The position numbers and the translations under genes were made by a program. From Escherichia phage OES_C-1, in the sequence record PQ553088: a stretch of 64,000 nucleotides of DNA. The stretch is one strand, 5' to 3'. The stretch's first letter is position 1, and the number at the start of each line of letters is the position of its first letter. Shown piece by piece: positions 3,677 to 43,424 of this stretch. The notes below the pieces were generated by a model. The model was not told the DNA's origin, ran no database searches, and worked only from the letters and a program-made list of their open reading frames with translations.

Positions 3677-6817
<3,141 letters not shown>

Positions 6818-31085: not shown

Positions 31086-31115
31086 ATTATAACACAACAC
31101 GAGTGACTTGTAAAC
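31086..31115 (-). promoter_or_regulatory. early (sigma70-type) promoter GTTTAC-N18-TATAAT
   Basis: Minus strand GTTTAC (31110-31115) and TATAAT (31086-31091); drives the 96-aa ORF. Confidence 0.55.
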
Positions 31116-33172
31116 TACATCTTGAACTTTTTAGACATTCCATTGATGTTAACCAAAGAAGCCAAGATTTGAGAAACTTCATTTTCCTCTTCTTTTGATT
31201 CTTCTACAAGGAATTGGTTAAATCCAGTCATTGGACGAACTTCACCAGTTTCCATCAGATGGTCACCATCATATACCGATTCTTCTAATTGTTCAGAAGG
31301 AGGAACGATTGTGCCTTCGATTAGATACTTGTTATAAGCAGTTTCTTTCATCATGTACGTACTCACTTTATTAATCTTCAGCAAAATTCCACGCGGTAGA
31401 ATAACTTCAGCTTCTGATGGAAATCCTGATAAATGACCTGGAACGATAACTTTGATTCGCTCAGCTCCTTTAATTACCATACCCACGCTAGTTTCAGCAT
31501 CTTCATTGGCATACGCAGAATGACTGCCCATATGCATTAAATCTTCAGCATCAACGGAACCTTCTCCTTCACCAGAAAATACTGCACTGGAATCATCTAG
31601 GGCCATATAGTTTTTACCATACTCACCGAAGATATTTGGTTTAAGTGATGTGGATACGAAGTTCTTGAAATAGAACATTTTATTTTCAATATTATGACGT
31701 AAAGTTTTAAAGGTAACTTCTTGGCCACGGTAAAGCGTAGTTCCTGGAGGAAGAACTGATCCTTTGGCAAAGGCAGAATCCATTGTCTCGATGTGTTTAA
31801 TAGCTCGTTCCATGTATTCTTCACGTGTAGAATCTGGTTTACCTAAAAGGAACGAGTTCATTTCAACATATGAATCTGCACAATAATCTTCAATTACATC
31901 AGACTCAGCTTGAGTTAATCCTTTTGGAGTTACTTCAGTACTTGCATATTCATACGCTTGAGAAGCAGACTCATTAATCAATTTATAAACGCCATTCATG
32001 ACAAATTGAACAATAGCTACCTTTTCATCTGGCGTGGCTTTAGAACCTTTAACTAAATCATTGATAATTTTCTTAATAACATCAAAGCTATTAGAAATAT
32101 TAATGTCAGCAAGATCGCTTAAAATTTTATCAGTTTTATAATCAAAAAATTCTTTATTCTTTAAATATTCCTGAGAACCTTGATATGTTATATCGCTCTG
32201 TAACTTGATAGATGGATCACGTAAACGTGCATGAGCCAATGCAATATGATTTCGGAAGCTTTCGAGTTCATAATCACTAGATTTAAAACGAGAAGCACTT
32301 CTCATACCACCGATAGCTCCTTTGCTGAAGTTTGAACCAACCTGAATAACGCCGGAGTTCATTGGTCCTTCTGCTTTATATACCGGAACTTTAGATTCAA
32401 ACTCTTGATATTTCTTAGCAGCGAAGCTATCACCCTGAAGTGAAGCATCGACAGTAGAGTATTGAGCTTGTGCTGCTAATCGACGACTAATTTTAGTTTT
32501 CTGAATAACAGCTTGATCTGTGCGCTTATCATTTTCTAAAGCAATAGAAGCAGCAACAGCGACAGCTTTAGGAACAGCATTACCTGTTTTAACATCTACA
32601 TAAACATCACCAACCTTTGATTCAACTTTTGTGAATAACTCAGTTGAAATAGGAGGTACACCTGGAATGTCTTCTAAATTGGCATTTTTACGGTAAACCA
32701 TAATATATGCATATTTCTTATCATAGTCCCAGATTTCCTTTAAAAGAACATATCGACCTGCTCCTTTAGTACGTACTAAACGGTCGGCAATAACTTGCAT
32801 TTGACGAGCAGCGCCATTTGTTTTACTTTTTAGTACGCGGAATAGGCATGCGTCAATTTTATACTGTTTCATTGTTTGAAGAGCAGTATCAAAAACCGCA
32901 TTAATGACACCAATTGGATTTCCACCCAAGTTTTTAAGTTTAACTAATGATAGTTTTTCATTGACACCTATCATTACGATATGCATCATTTTATCGCCTG
33001 GCTTAACGTTTTTATTTGTATCACCGCCAGAGGTGTATGTACAAAATCTAAATCCAGGAAGCACACTTTCTTCACCTGCTTGAATAGCAAAAATTTGAGG
33101 TATTTTATGCTTAGGATTTAAGTTAACAACCGGCGCCGAAGCGCCGTCAAATAATTCTGTAATAAGTTCCAT
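31115..33172 (-). CDS. Alt-family ADP-ribosyltransferase paralog (685 aa)
   Basis: N-terminal ~230 aa about 65% identical to the adjacent Alt; ART R-S-EXE motifs (YRGQ, FVSTSL, EAEVILPRG). Confidence 0.8.
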   Translation of the reverse strand: MELITELFDGASAPVVNLNPKHKIPQIFAIQAGEESVLPGFRFCTYTSGGDTNKNVKPGDKMMHIVMIGVNEKLSLVKLKNLGGNPIGVINAVFDTALQTMKQYKIDACLFRVLKSKTNGAARQMQVIADRLVRTKGAGRYVLLKEIWDYDKKYAYIMVYRKNANLEDIPGVPPISTELFTKVESKVGDVYVDVKTGNAVPKAVAVAASIALENDKRTDQAVIQKTKISRRLAAQAQYSTVDASLQGDSFAAKKYQEFESKVPVYKAEGPMNSGVIQVGSNFSKGAIGGMRSASRFKSSDYELESFRNHIALAHARLRDPSIKLQSDITYQGSQEYLKNKEFFDYKTDKILSDLADINISNSFDVIKKIINDLVKGSKATPDEKVAIVQFVMNGVYKLINESASQAYEYASTEVTPKGLTQAESDVIEDYCADSYVEMNSFLLGKPDSTREEYMERAIKHIETMDSAFAKGSVLPPGTTLYRGQEVTFKTLRHNIENKMFYFKNFVSTSLKPNIFGEYGKNYMALDDSSAVFSGEGEGSVDAEDLMHMGSHSAYANEDAETSVGMVIKGAERIKVIVPGHLSGFPSEAEVILPRGILLKINKVSTYMMKETAYNKYLIEGTIVPPSEQLEESVYDGDHLMETGEVRPMTGFNQFLVEESKEEENEVSQILASLVNINGMSKKFKM

Positions 33173-33175
33173 GAT

Positions 33176-35272
33176 TTATCCTTGAACGAACTTGTAAGGC
33201 ATGTTTGTAATATCTATGCAAGACGCAATAATTCCAAGAGATGATTCTACTTTCTGTTTAACATTTGATGAAACAAATGATGCAAAGTCAACTCTGTCTT
33301 CTATTTCAATATCACCTGTCATTGCAACTACTTCACCAGTTTCCATTAGACGGTCACCGTCATAAATTACTGATTCGGTGAGTTCTTCCGTAGTCATAAC
33401 TTCAGCTTGAATGAGTTTTGTATTATTAGATGTTGTTCCGTCATTATTAGAAGCATCAGTTATTTTATTAACTTTGACCATCAATCCGCGTGGTAGAATT
33501 ACTTCAGCTTCTGTTGCTATTCCGAGACTTCCTGGATATACAACATTAACTTTATGAGCTCCATCAATTGCCCATCCTATTTGAACTTTAACGTATTCAG
33601 GATTTTCTTTATACGCTCTTATTTCGTTTGGATTAATAGTTATTCCTTCTTCATTTTTATCAACTGTTAATTCATTGCGAGCTTCTGGTTCTAAAAGACC
33701 GATACCAGCATGTGTAATTCCAAAACGTCCAAAAATGATAGGAGTTAAAGAAGTAGATACAAAATTTCTGAAATAGAACACTTTATTTTTAACTAGTGCT
33801 TCGTATATAGGAGCAGTCATACTTTGAGCACGATAAACTGTAATGCCTTCTGGTATACGGTCACCATTTTCAAAAGCTGAATCTAAGTTATTTATAGCAG
33901 ATTCAATTTCTTTTTCACTCATTACATCATATCGTTCTGGATTGTAGCGGCCTAAAAGAAGATTATTGATGTCAGTATATCCTGATCCACAATACTCTCT
34001 AATGCCGCGCTTTTGCGATGGAGTATATTTAGAACCATCACGTGCAATGGTAATATCAATCATTGGACCTGCACCAATTCCAGAAAAGCTATAAATCATT
34101 CGTTTGAGGAATTTAGTTTTTGCTGCGTTCCAGGAATTTTTAGTTATTTCTTCCCAGACTTCATCTGGCTGCCCTTTACGAGTTTTATTATGTTTATCAA
34201 GCCAATTATCTTTATATTCTTCAAAGAGTTGATTAATAGCTGCTGCGTATTTCTCTAAACATTTTATTGAAGTAGTTGGTTCATTTTTAATCGCATTAAG
34301 AATTACATCTTTAATTTTTTCAGAAACTTCATCAACCTCACTTTTTGAAAAGAATTTATAGTCATAGTGAAGTTCATTTGCAGTTCCTTCGGCAATAATT
34401 TTTGCTGCCTTAGTTTTAGAAGCTAATGAATTAATTCCAAGCTTCATTTCTTCTGCTTCGGGAATTAAAGGAGCGGTAGCAGGTTTATTAAAATTAGCTG
34501 CGGTAGATTCATACTTCTGGAATAATTCACTTTCAAATCTAGAAGATTCTAATGACTGACTTTGCGCAATTGCTCTACGGGAAATTTTAACTTTAACAAT
34601 AACAGCTTGGTCAGAACGTTTATCATTTTCTTGTGCAATAGATGCTGCAATTGCCTCATTTTTAGTTACTTGAGCTCCGGTATCTTTATTGATATAAACA
34701 TCGCCGACCTTCGATTCAACTTTAGTAAAGAGCTCGGTACTAATTTCCGGAACTCCTGGAATGTCTTCTAGTGATACATTTTTGCGATGTATAAGAATAT
34801 ATGCATACTTTTTATCATAATCCCAGAGTTCCTTAAGAAGGACGTATCTGCCACCTGAACGACTACGGATAAGTCTATCAGCAATAACTTGAATTTGTCG
34901 AGCTTGACCAGCAGTTTTAGACTTAAGAATACGAAGCATACAGGCATCAATTTTATACTGACGCATTGTTTGCATTGCAACAGTAAAAACTGAATTGATG
35001 TAATTAATTGGGCTTGGACCGAGACCTTTTAATTTAGCAATTGAACCTTTAGCAGTTAGTGTAAAAGGAACAATGTGCATCATTTTATCGCCCATCTTTA
35101 AATCACGGTTAGTATCACCTCCAGATGTATATGTACATAAACGAAAGCCTGGTTGCTCAATTGCGTCATCAACATGAACTGAAAAAATTTGCGGTATTTT
35201 CTTCTTTGGATTTAAGTTTGTAATCGGAAGAGTAGTATCTTCGTCAAATAATTCTGTAATAAGTTCCATCAT
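33176..35272 (-). CDS. alt: Alt ADP-ribosyltransferase (packaged internal head protein), 698 aa
   Basis: MELITELFD N-terminus; ART motifs YRAQ, FVSTSL, EAEVILPRG; minus-strand late promoter at 35293-35300. Confidence 0.85.
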   Translation of the reverse strand: MMELITELFDEDTTLPITNLNPKKKIPQIFSVHVDDAIEQPGFRLCTYTSGGDTNRDLKMGDKMMHIVPFTLTAKGSIAKLKGLGPSPINYINSVFTVAMQTMRQYKIDACMLRILKSKTAGQARQIQVIADRLIRSRSGGRYVLLKELWDYDKKYAYILIHRKNVSLEDIPGVPEISTELFTKVESKVGDVYINKDTGAQVTKNEAIAASIAQENDKRSDQAVIVKVKISRRAIAQSQSLESSRFESELFQKYESTAANFNKPATAPLIPEAEEMKLGINSLASKTKAAKIIAEGTANELHYDYKFFSKSEVDEVSEKIKDVILNAIKNEPTTSIKCLEKYAAAINQLFEEYKDNWLDKHNKTRKGQPDEVWEEITKNSWNAAKTKFLKRMIYSFSGIGAGPMIDITIARDGSKYTPSQKRGIREYCGSGYTDINNLLLGRYNPERYDVMSEKEIESAINNLDSAFENGDRIPEGITVYRAQSMTAPIYEALVKNKVFYFRNFVSTSLTPIIFGRFGITHAGIGLLEPEARNELTVDKNEEGITINPNEIRAYKENPEYVKVQIGWAIDGAHKVNVVYPGSLGIATEAEVILPRGLMVKVNKITDASNNDGTTSNNTKLIQAEVMTTEELTESVIYDGDRLMETGEVVAMTGDIEIEDRVDFASFVSSNVKQKVESSLGIIASCIDITNMPYKFVQG

Positions 35273-36967: not shown

Positions 36968-37233
36968 TGCTCATCCTTCAAGGTTTGGTTTACAGCTCTA
37001 TTATAAATCAATTCATCATTAAGCTCAGGCAAAGACTTATGATATGTAGTTCTAACTTTATTTCCTTGCATCCAGTGCTTGACGTAAATGAAACCTTGCT
37101 CTACACATTTTTTAAAAATTCGTTCGTCTTTTTGAGCTCGGAATTCTGGATTGCATCTAAAAAATTGATTTACGTGACCGTAATCACGTGTAGTATTACC
37201 TTCATTTTCATAAATAGTATGAACAACAAACAT
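36964..37233 (-). CDS. hypothetical protein (30.1 position)
   Basis: 89-aa ORF. Confidence 0.55.
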   Translation of the reverse strand: MFVVHTIYENEGNTTRDYGHVNQFFRCNPEFRAQKDERIFKKCVEQGFIYVKHWMQGNKVRTTYHKSLPELNDELIYNRAVNQTLKDEQ

Positions 37234-38072
37234 TAGAATGCTCCTTGAAAAATATTATCACCACTAGTAGGTCTATTATACAAATACTCTATGCCACCAG
37301 GTTTAATATAGTTCCATGTCTGAAACGGATGTGTCTGATATGGATGATATAGATGATTATAAGGATTTAATCCAGGCGTTCTCCAGGTAGTGTTCCAAGG
37401 AAAAGAATCGTTTTTAACCATCTTCTCAATTACATCTTTTATAGCTTTTTCACTATCAAAACTTTCTTTATTTTCCTTTGGTGAAAAAAGCTTATTTTCT
37501 ACATCATTCCATGTATAAACTCGCTGGGCAGTTTTTGGAATATTGTCACGCTCTCCTCGAGCCATCCAATAAACTGGAACATTTAATATTTCACTCGCAT
37601 GATCGCAGTGGTGAGCGAGATCGTCAATATAACAAATTACGTTATATTTCTCTTTTGCCTTTTTGAACAACTCTTCTTTTGAAGAATCATGACCGCACAT
37701 CATTACTTCTGAGAAGGCACCAGGAAAAAGAGCATTCAAATTAAATTGACGATTCAACAGAGCGTCAATAGAATCACCCAATGCTGTAACAGCTACAAAA
37801 TTATAATCTTCTTTTAATTTGTTAATTACACACAGAGCATCTTTATATGGAGACAAGTAACGAATAAAATCTGAACGATTATATTTTTCAATTAACTTGA
37901 CGCCAAGTTCTTCATCACAATTAAAGAGTTTACCTGGAGAAATAAATTTCTCATCTTGGATCATTTTTAAAATATGTTCTAACGGAAGATTATATTTCTG
38001 AGCAAAATAAGGAAGGCCTGATTGCCAGCTTAAACATACTCCATCAATATCAGTTAAAATAGTTGGCTTCAT
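37233..38072 (-). CDS. HAD-superfamily phosphatase-like protein (30.2 position)
   Basis: 279 aa; HAD motif I DIDGV at residues 8-12 and DD motif (YIDDLAHH). Confidence 0.6.
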   Translation of the reverse strand: MKPTILTDIDGVCLSWQSGLPYFAQKYNLPLEHILKMIQDEKFISPGKLFNCDEELGVKLIEKYNRSDFIRYLSPYKDALCVINKLKEDYNFVAVTALGDSIDALLNRQFNLNALFPGAFSEVMMCGHDSSKEELFKKAKEKYNVICYIDDLAHHCDHASEILNVPVYWMARGERDNIPKTAQRVYTWNDVENKLFSPKENKESFDSEKAIKDVIEKMVKNDSFPWNTTWRTPGLNPYNHLYHPYQTHPFQTWNYIKPGGIEYLYNRPTSGDNIFQGAF

Positions 38073-38533
38073 AGAGAGTCTCTTAATAGGTTTAACACAT
38101 CAATAAATTCAGCTTCGGTTAGTATTGTATCATCTTTTGTTAGACCACTAGCCATGCTGTGCTTCAAAACTTTTCCTTTCGAGGCTTGTAATGCATCACG
38201 AAAGCCCCTGTTTTGGATCGCTGCTTCAAAATATGCATTTGTGTATAATTCTTTCCACGCCGGGGAGTATCTTGAAAACGGAACTCCAAGCCAAAAGAGG
38301 GTCCCACGGTCCTGAGCTCTAGCATAAGACCTTCCAGCTTGTTGGGCGGCAAGCCCGGATAACCCAAATATACGTCTTTGCTGTTCAACATTTTTCACCT
38401 TACATCCTTGGAGGAATCCTTCGAGACCTCCAAATTGGATACCATCCATAGCGAAAGGCCATTGGGCGAAATTGCTTAATGCACATGATGGCCATCTAAA
38501 ATTGCTTCTTATTTCTAGCTCAGACATTTTCAA
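38069..38533 (-). CDS. NADAR/YbiA-like domain protein (30.3 position)
   Basis: 154 aa; ALSNFAQWPFAMDGIQFGGLEGFLQGCK resembles the YbiA/NADAR core SNFAAWP..DG....SEHYFQAQK. Confidence 0.6.
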   Translation of the reverse strand: MKMSELEIRSNFRWPSCALSNFAQWPFAMDGIQFGGLEGFLQGCKVKNVEQQRRIFGLSGLAAQQAGRSYARAQDRGTLFWLGVPFSRYSPAWKELYTNAYFEAAIQNRGFRDALQASKGKVLKHSMASGLTKDDTILTEAEFIDVLNLLRDSL

Positions 38534-39207: not shown

Positions 39208-39248
39208 AGTATTTTCCTCAGTAAGGGGCCGAAGCCCCTTATTTTATT

Positions 39249-42670: not shown

Positions 42671-42903
42671 AGTACGCCATACACCCTTTGTGCTTCAACT
42701 AATCCATCAAAATCCAATTTGAGATGTGTTATTTGGTCACCATCACCTGGATTCACAATTACTAATACTGAACGAGGAGTTTCGGTAATAACACGAACCG
42801 ATGTTTCAGGAAATCGTTCAGAAACCTTATTTACCAATTCCTGAGCAAATAGTTTAACTTTTTCTTGGAATTCTTTAACAGTAATTGGTTTTTCACTTAG
42901 CAT
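42667..42903 (-). CDS. hypothetical protein (cd.2 position)
   Basis: 78-aa ORF. Confidence 0.5.
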   Translation of the reverse strand: MLSEKPITVKEFQEKVKLFAQELVNKVSERFPETSVRVITETPRSVLVIVNPGDGDQITHLKLDFDGLVEAQRVYGVL

Positions 42904-43424
42904 GTTGATCCAAGCTCCTTACTTTCAACGTTTTTAACTAATTTGACAGAAACTAATTCAGCATCTTGAGTAATCATTACCGGACCTTCTTCATACTCTT
43001 CAAGATATTCTAGAGCTTTCTTTTTAGCTTCTTCCTTCGTATCAGTTTGAGCATAGATATAAAACATACAACCAGTAATACCTACTACTTTCCACTTAAT
43101 TTCTTTATCAGCTTTAATTTCAAATTTACTGACAGAATCATCTTTTTGAACTTCTTCGAAAAAAGAATATTCTAACATATAAGCAATTGAAAATAACGGG
43201 CTAACTTTATAGGATTCGCCCATTACATCAACAGCTTTATACCAGCAGTCATCAATTTCTCGTTTAATGCTAATAACATTTTTCGCAGGATCTATTTTTA
43301 CTTTAAATGAATTTTCCCCAATAAACTGGGCAATTCGTTTATTAGCCCCGCAAGTTTCATTAAAAATATCTTTATATCCAGCTTTAAAGCGATAAACCTT
43401 ATCTTCTTCAAACCATTCGCTCAT
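42897..43424 (-). CDS. hypothetical protein (cd.3 position)
   Basis: 175-aa ORF with early promoter-like motif and hairpin upstream. Confidence 0.5.
   Translation of the reverse strand: MSEWFEEDKVYRFKAGYKDIFNETCGANKRIAQFIGENSFKVKIDPAKNVISIKREIDDCWYKAVDVMGESYKVSPLFSIAYMLEYSFFEEVQKDDSVSKFEIKADKEIKWKVVGITGCMFYIYAQTDTKEEAKKKALEYLEEYEEGPVMITQDAELVSVKLVKNVESKELGSTC

Follow-up and report, generated by a model that had tools for sequence, protein, structure and literature searches.

Escherichia phage OES_C-1 carries an orthologue of the T4 anti-DarT factor gene adfN

Does the small NADAR-like protein encoded near the Alt ADP-ribosyltransferase genes of Escherichia phage OES_C-1 (PQ553088) protect the phage from a host toxin, or does it act on ADP-ribosylation made by the phage itself? 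The question arises from a preliminary description of the window, i.e. the whole stretch of 64,000 nucleotides analysed here, in which an open reading frame (ORF) was assigned to the YbiA/NADAR family from the letters alone. Two roles were put forward for its product, a counter-defence against DarTG and the editing of modifications introduced by the phage's own ADP-ribosyltransferases (ARTs).

According to the ORF list and the sequence, the ORF is located on the minus strand, which the preliminary description had left unstated, at 38069..38533, contains the previously quoted peptide ALSNFAQWPFAMDGIQFGGLEGFLQGCK and encodes 154 AA if counted from TTG. An in-frame ATG is found at 38527, two codons 3' of the TTG at 38533. 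This ATG is most likely the actual start, since it is annotated for the same gene in T4 and in Escherichia phage OES_C-2 (PQ642263), and since the published numbering of the residues E36 and K43 fits only this codon. The ORF reported earlier is therefore real, but its start most likely has to be moved, which shortens the protein to 152 AA (Table 1). Public records matching 38069-38527 include PQ642263 and NC_000866. A further ORF of 75 AA (38164-38391, minus strand) is nested in adfN in another frame and matches the annotated T4 gene 30.3', described in T4 as 'internal translation, in a different reading frame'; this arrangement is conserved in OES_C-1.

Sequence and synteny identify the OES_C-1 gene as the T4 30.3/adfN orthologue. 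Both proteins are of equal length and identical at 149 of 152 positions (98%). The three differences from T4 gp30.3 (V26A, K107R and I125M) are conservative and fall in variable columns of alignment A1, which comprises the 74 full-length sequences among 88 collected homologues and in which M125 is the majority residue. An identical protein is present in Yersinia phage vB_YepM_ZN18. The 2.7 kb around adfN share 100% identity with OES_C-2, a Tequatrovirus, and more than 97% identity with many T4-like phages, and the OES_C-1 window is Tequatrovirus. The gene order follows that of T4 (alt, alt.1, DNA ligase (30), 30.1, 30.2, 30.3, 30.4-30.8, rIII, 31), with adfN flanked by 30.2 and 30.4 as in the T4 arrangement.

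Because overlaps of 1 to 8 nt join neighbouring genes all the way from 30.6 to 30, including 30.4/30.3 and 30.3/30.2, this block is a tightly packed and probably translationally coupled operon, and the 30.4/adfN overlap itself suggests translational coupling. In the literature, the ligase-adjacent region of T4 is described as an early region. A scan for σ70-type promoters between 35 and 42 kb returned 22 sites compared to 24.6 in shuffled controls, and no promoter is claimed since this is not above the level of shuffled sequence. Two other features of the surrounding region were observed. A perfect GC-rich hairpin with a 10-bp stem (39220-39243; GGGGCCGAAGCCCC core) and a T-rich run after it is located in the short gap between 30.7 and 30.6. 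It scores like a terminator of the plus strand, whereas the genes around it are all encoded on the minus strand. Between the homologues of cd.2 and cd.3, a 175-AA ORF (42897-43424, minus strand; EC2_218 in PQ642263) has no Pfam match and no counterpart at the equivalent position of T4, and may be an accessory insertion.

Table 1. Positions of adfN, its coding landmarks, its gene overlaps and the Alt genes in the OES_C-1 window
Feature	Position	Strand	Basis
adfN (T4 gene 30.3 orthologue), 152 aa, NADAR-fold DNA ADP-ribosylglycohydrolase	38069..38527	-	
Extra in-frame codons TTG AAA of the earlier ORF call	38528..38533	-	Probably untranslated
Overlap of 30.4 stop and adfN start, 8 nt (AATGTCTGA)	38520..38527	-	ORF coordinates and sequence
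S18-N19-F20, start of the NADAR core motif	38468..38476	-	74/74; aligned with YbiA S30-N31-F32
Catalytic Glu36 codon, GAA	38420..38422	-	74/74 invariant; aligned with YbiA E48
Catalytic Lys43 codon, AAG	38399..38401	-	K in 72/74; aligned with YbiA K55
His123 codon, CAC	38159..38161	-	74/74 invariant; phage-clade replacement of the second catalytic acid
C-terminal alpha-helix, residues 138-151	38075..38116	-	AF2 model; present in 74/74 homologues
Overlap of adfN stop and 30.2 start, 4-nt ATGA	38069..38072	-	ORF coordinates and sequence
Alt paralogue, ligase-proximal	33176-35269	-	PF03496; 70% identical to T4 Alt
Alt paralogue, second copy	31115-33172	-	PF03496; 42% identical to T4 Alt

The earlier assignment to the YbiA/NADAR family was borne out by profile and structure comparisons. 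AdfN scores 230.9 bits (E 5e-69) with the Pfam family PF08010 (Phage_30_3), whose gathering cut-off is 36, over 138/138 profile positions, and also matches phrog_652, a family of unknown function; no NCBIfam model matched AdfN or its neighbours. The NADAR profile PF08719, which the preliminary description had named as the check, found nothing at E<=1 in the AdfN sequence alone. This miss is due to the fact that Pfam models the phage clade separately as PF08010. Within A1, 30 of the 74 members match PF08719 at E<=0.1, the best with 1.5e-7. In a pairwise phmmer search against the PDB, YbiA was found with an E-value of 1.2, which is not significant alone, behind an unrelated chain at 0.52. With the A1 profile, YbiA (2b3w) was the sole PDB sequence below E=1 in hmmsearch (E 0.0025), and hhalign of A1 against E. 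coli K-12 YbiA gave a probability of 94% and an E-value of 1.4e-7 over 96 columns. Structure prediction using AlphaFold with the 74 sequences of A1 resulted in a pLDDT of 93.4 and a pTM of 0.88; the model obtained without an alignment (pLDDT 36.8) was discarded. The top Foldseek matches of the retained model in the PDB were YbiA, the Phytophthora NADAR (8bau) and the Geobacter DarG1-type NADAR (8bat), all other matches having E>2, and the model shows the YbiA-like fold with an alpha-helical core and small flanking beta-sheets. AdfN of OES_C-1 is a minimal, core-only NADAR-fold enzyme.

The conservation of individual residues points in the same direction. The core motif read from the DNA previously is present, and the invariant positions of A1 are P13, L17, S18, N19, F20, F25, E36, G37, F38, Q40, Q50, A61, R86, H123, L136, T137, E140 and L145. 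The catalytic glutamate, which had been singled out as the decisive residue, is found as E36. E36 and K43 (E-x6-K) are the counterparts of E43 and K50 in the Phytophthora enzyme (PnNADAR), which touch ADP-ribose in the crystal structure (PMC11543638). The hhalign register stops at AdfN K122 and YbiA V124, so that one more residue pairs the invariant H123 with YbiA E125. According to the literature, YbiA-type enzymes have Glu at this catalytic position, DarG1-type enzymes Asp and phage NADARs His (PMC11543638, PMC11125620, PMC12945103), and, judging from its position and conservation, H123 most likely takes part in catalysis. The protein is full length, its helix at residues 138-151 is predicted at high confidence, and there is no frameshift of the RB69 type. 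Nothing in the AdfN sequence of OES_C-1 points to a loss of function.

The function of the T4 protein is well described. T4 gp30.3 was renamed AdfN (anti-DarT factor NADAR) by Johannesman et al. (Nat Commun 2025; PMC11825919), who showed by mapping that the T-even phages owe their DarTG1 resistance to gene 30.3. Upon deletion of adfN, T4 and T2 lose plaquing on DarTG1 cells. In phage RB69, a frameshift in adfN removes the last 15 residues of the protein; this phage is sensitive to DarTG1 and is rescued by adfN expression (PMC11825919). DarT1-modified DNA loses its ADP-ribose to purified T4 AdfN but not to the E36A variant; this substitution impairs the protein in vivo and in vitro, and K43A as well as C-terminal truncation reduce its activity (PMC11825919). 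In the same study, no interaction between AdfN and DarT1 was detected in a two-hybrid assay, and DarTG2 was not countered (PMC11825919). Hydrolysis of guanosine-ADPr by the T4 protein in vitro was shown independently by Cihlova et al. 2024 (PMC11125620), and G-ADPr hydrolysis by T4 NADAR was seen again in a 2026 study, in whose summary table NADAR and YbiA are the only families listed as reversing cytidine-ADPr (PMC12945103). In a transposon-sequencing screen of T4, insertions in 30.3/adfN were lost specifically on the DarTG1 host (bioRxiv 10.1101/2025.11.20.689424). T4 AdfN does not protect uninfected cells from DarT1 (PMC11825919, PMC11125620). It barely rescues T5 and Bas25 and reaches its full effect only during T-even infection, and DNA hypermodification has been ruled out as the reason for this dependence (PMC11825919).

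Taken together, it is very likely that the OES_C-1 gene is an AdfN orthologue that counters DarTG1 by stripping guanine-linked ADP-ribose from phage DNA. We infer that the OES_C-1 allele would behave like the 98%-identical T4 protein with regard to both enzyme activity and counter-defence. On a DarTG1 host, infection would release or activate the toxin DarT1, which would ADP-ribosylate guanine in phage DNA and block replication. AdfN, whose gene is part of the co-oriented block next to the DNA ligase gene, would then hydrolyse the N-glycosidic bond between guanine and ADP-ribose via E36, K43 and most likely H123, leaving DNA that can be replicated. In this way, the phage would bring along an orphan, type IV-like antitoxin of its own. 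AdfN is expected neither to bind DarT1 nor to act on thymidine-linked ADP-ribose, the DarTG2 product, and, being guanine-specific, would therefore have no effect on DarTG2. The anti-DarTG counter-defence suggested in the preliminary description thus agrees with the established function of T4 gp30.3, restricted to DarTG1. Its remark that the role was unproven holds for OES_C-1 but not for the gene family, since the function of the T4 protein was shown by experiment. As the anti-DarTG1 function of this gene has already been published, nothing biologically new is added here.

The lack of rescue of uninfected cells and the weak rescue of T5 and Bas25 imply that the activity in vivo needs a further factor. 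Since the T4-type AdfN works fully only in T-even infection, a phage-encoded partner from among the uncharacterised genes transcribed together with adfN, for example gp30.2, could be considered, or else a second substrate that is specific to the phage, for example RNA ADP-ribosylated at guanine; we regard either as unlikely. The gene for gp30.2 (279 AA; 37233-38072, minus strand) is located directly downstream of adfN, with which it shares the ATGA overlap. Its N-terminus (MKPTILTDIDGVCLSW) contains DIDGV, a DxDG motif resembling that of HAD phosphatases. No match to gp30.2 was found in Pfam, NCBIfam or the PDB sequences, and it belongs to phrog_420 (unknown function). In the syntenic Acinetobacter phage Konradin, a gp30.2 homologue with a conserved N-terminal region of 175 AA adjoins the adfN homologue; in 5 of the 6 distant phages examined, none is present within 4 kb of the adfN homologue. 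For DarTG1, the preprint on the T4 transposon screen mentions 30.3 alone in its text (bioRxiv 10.1101/2025.11.20.689424). Because of this absence and because the screen names only 30.3, gp30.2 was set aside as a conserved partner of AdfN.

A second possibility is that AdfN edits or reverses ADP-ribosylation by the phage ARTs (the Alt paralogues, ModA and ModB), instead of or besides its role against a host toxin. The proximity to Alt genes noted earlier is correct: two tandem full-length Alt-type ADP-ribosyltransferase genes, both with PF03496, are located 2.8-7 kb from adfN in the same gene block. Moreover, T4-like NADAR genes were noted to be expressed early together with ARTs (Iyer et al. 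2022, PMC9503650), and an Alt-like gene is also found near the homologue in Konradin. However, T4 Alt carries the annotation of an ADP-ribosyltransferase acting on protein (RNA polymerase), while all reported NADAR activities concern base-linked ADP-ribose (PMC11543638, PMC11125620, PMC12945103). Furthermore, the surroundings of the homologue are unrelated in 5 of the 6 distant phages and contain no annotated ART within 4 kb, and the DarTG1 phenotype fully accounts for the retention of the gene. Nothing was found that links AdfN to the products of Alt, as the preliminary description had suggested, and this explanation is very unlikely; as the main role of AdfN, the Alt link was rejected due to the type of substrate and the unrelated neighbourhoods. 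Regarding the Alt genes themselves, the ligase-proximal paralogue looks mosaic compared to T4 Alt, with the first ~250 AA and the C-terminus near-identical and the central ART region at ~50%. Where OES_C-1 has the second copy, T4 has mere remnants (alt.-1 and alt.-2).

It is highly improbable that AdfN, rather than acting on DNA adducts, hydrolyses soluble derivatives of ADP-ribose or immune signals derived from NAD, or aids NAD salvage. Such a function was proposed for phage NADARs by comparative genomics in 2022 (PMC9503650), and the homologue in Aeromonas phage CC2 is located near genes for a ribose-phosphate pyrophosphokinase and a nicotinamide phosphoribosyltransferase. Nevertheless, the removal of ADP-ribose from DNA is direct in vitro, the phenotype is specific to DarTG1 (PMC11825919, PMC11125620), and adfN has no NAD-salvage neighbours in the OES_C-1 window. 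The CC2 locus (L007; homologue at 4001-4450), with its NAD-salvage genes within 3.5 kb, differs from the T4 context. Finally, a YbiA-type housekeeping N-glycosidase clearing reactive intermediates of the riboflavin pathway has a negligible probability, considering that E125 of the YbiA subfamily is replaced by an invariant histidine, that a phage has no evident need for such an enzyme, and that phage NADARs are nearest to the DarG1 type in the published phylogeny (PMC11825919).

The public records of adfN reveal a gap in annotation. Using tblastn, adfN was detected in 1,510 of 50,697 deposited phage records, and the phages carrying it infect Escherichia, Klebsiella, Shigella, Aeromonas, Acinetobacter, Vibrio, Sinorhizobium and Ralstonia. 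In almost every sampled adfN record, including PQ642263, the label is 'hypothetical protein', and mislabels include one 'putative homing endonuclease' and one 'DprA-like'. A few labels refer to the gp30.3 family, but the function known from the literature is missing from the annotations. Relabelling the gene as adfN, an anti-DarTG1 ADP-ribosylglycohydrolase, would aid host-range prediction for T4-like therapeutic phages. It also deserves mention that a short motif, read from sequence alone, sufficed to recover a recently proven counter-defence gene.

Among the known systems, the closest is T4 gp30.3/AdfN, which has its genomic position, the operon overlaps, E36, K43, H123 and the C-terminal helix in common with the OES_C-1 protein and differs only at the three positions listed above. 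The DarG1 antitoxin (BC4488-type NADAR; Geobacter lovleyi NADAR, PDB 8BAT) is encoded adjacent to darT, whereas no darT1 was found beside adfN in OES_C-1: its neighbours 30.2 and 30.4 belong to no Pfam family, and the nearest ARTs are of the Alt type at a distance of at least 2.8 kb. DarG1 also has Asp instead of His123 at the third catalytic position and a basic N-terminal extension that is missing in AdfN (152 AA compared to 219 for 8bat, with 132 residues aligned), and it protects uninfected cells from DarT1, which T4 AdfN cannot (PMC11825919). E. coli YbiA (PDB 2B3W; PF08719) has its core fold and the SNF...E-x6-K motif in common with AdfN at an identity of ~20%, but has E125 at the position of H123; it is described as a housekeeping N-glycosidase and gives no protection from DarT1 in vivo (PMC11543638, PMC11125620).

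AdfN(Bas32) and AdfN(Bas60) of T5-like and Vequintavirinae phages are likewise phage-borne, orphan, guanine-specific, anti-DarTG1 NADARs but stem from separate acquisitions of archaeal-type and other bacterial-type NADARs (PMC11825919). Their activity does not require phage infection and extends to the rescue of unrelated phages, while the T4 type needs the T-even context (PMC11825919). Further anti-DarT factors of phages are AdfM (T4 tk.4), AdfA and AdfB. AdfM is an antitoxin-like hydrolase, as is AdfN; unlike AdfN, it is a macrodomain protein directed against the thymidine modification of DarTG2 (bioRxiv 10.1101/2025.11.20.689424).
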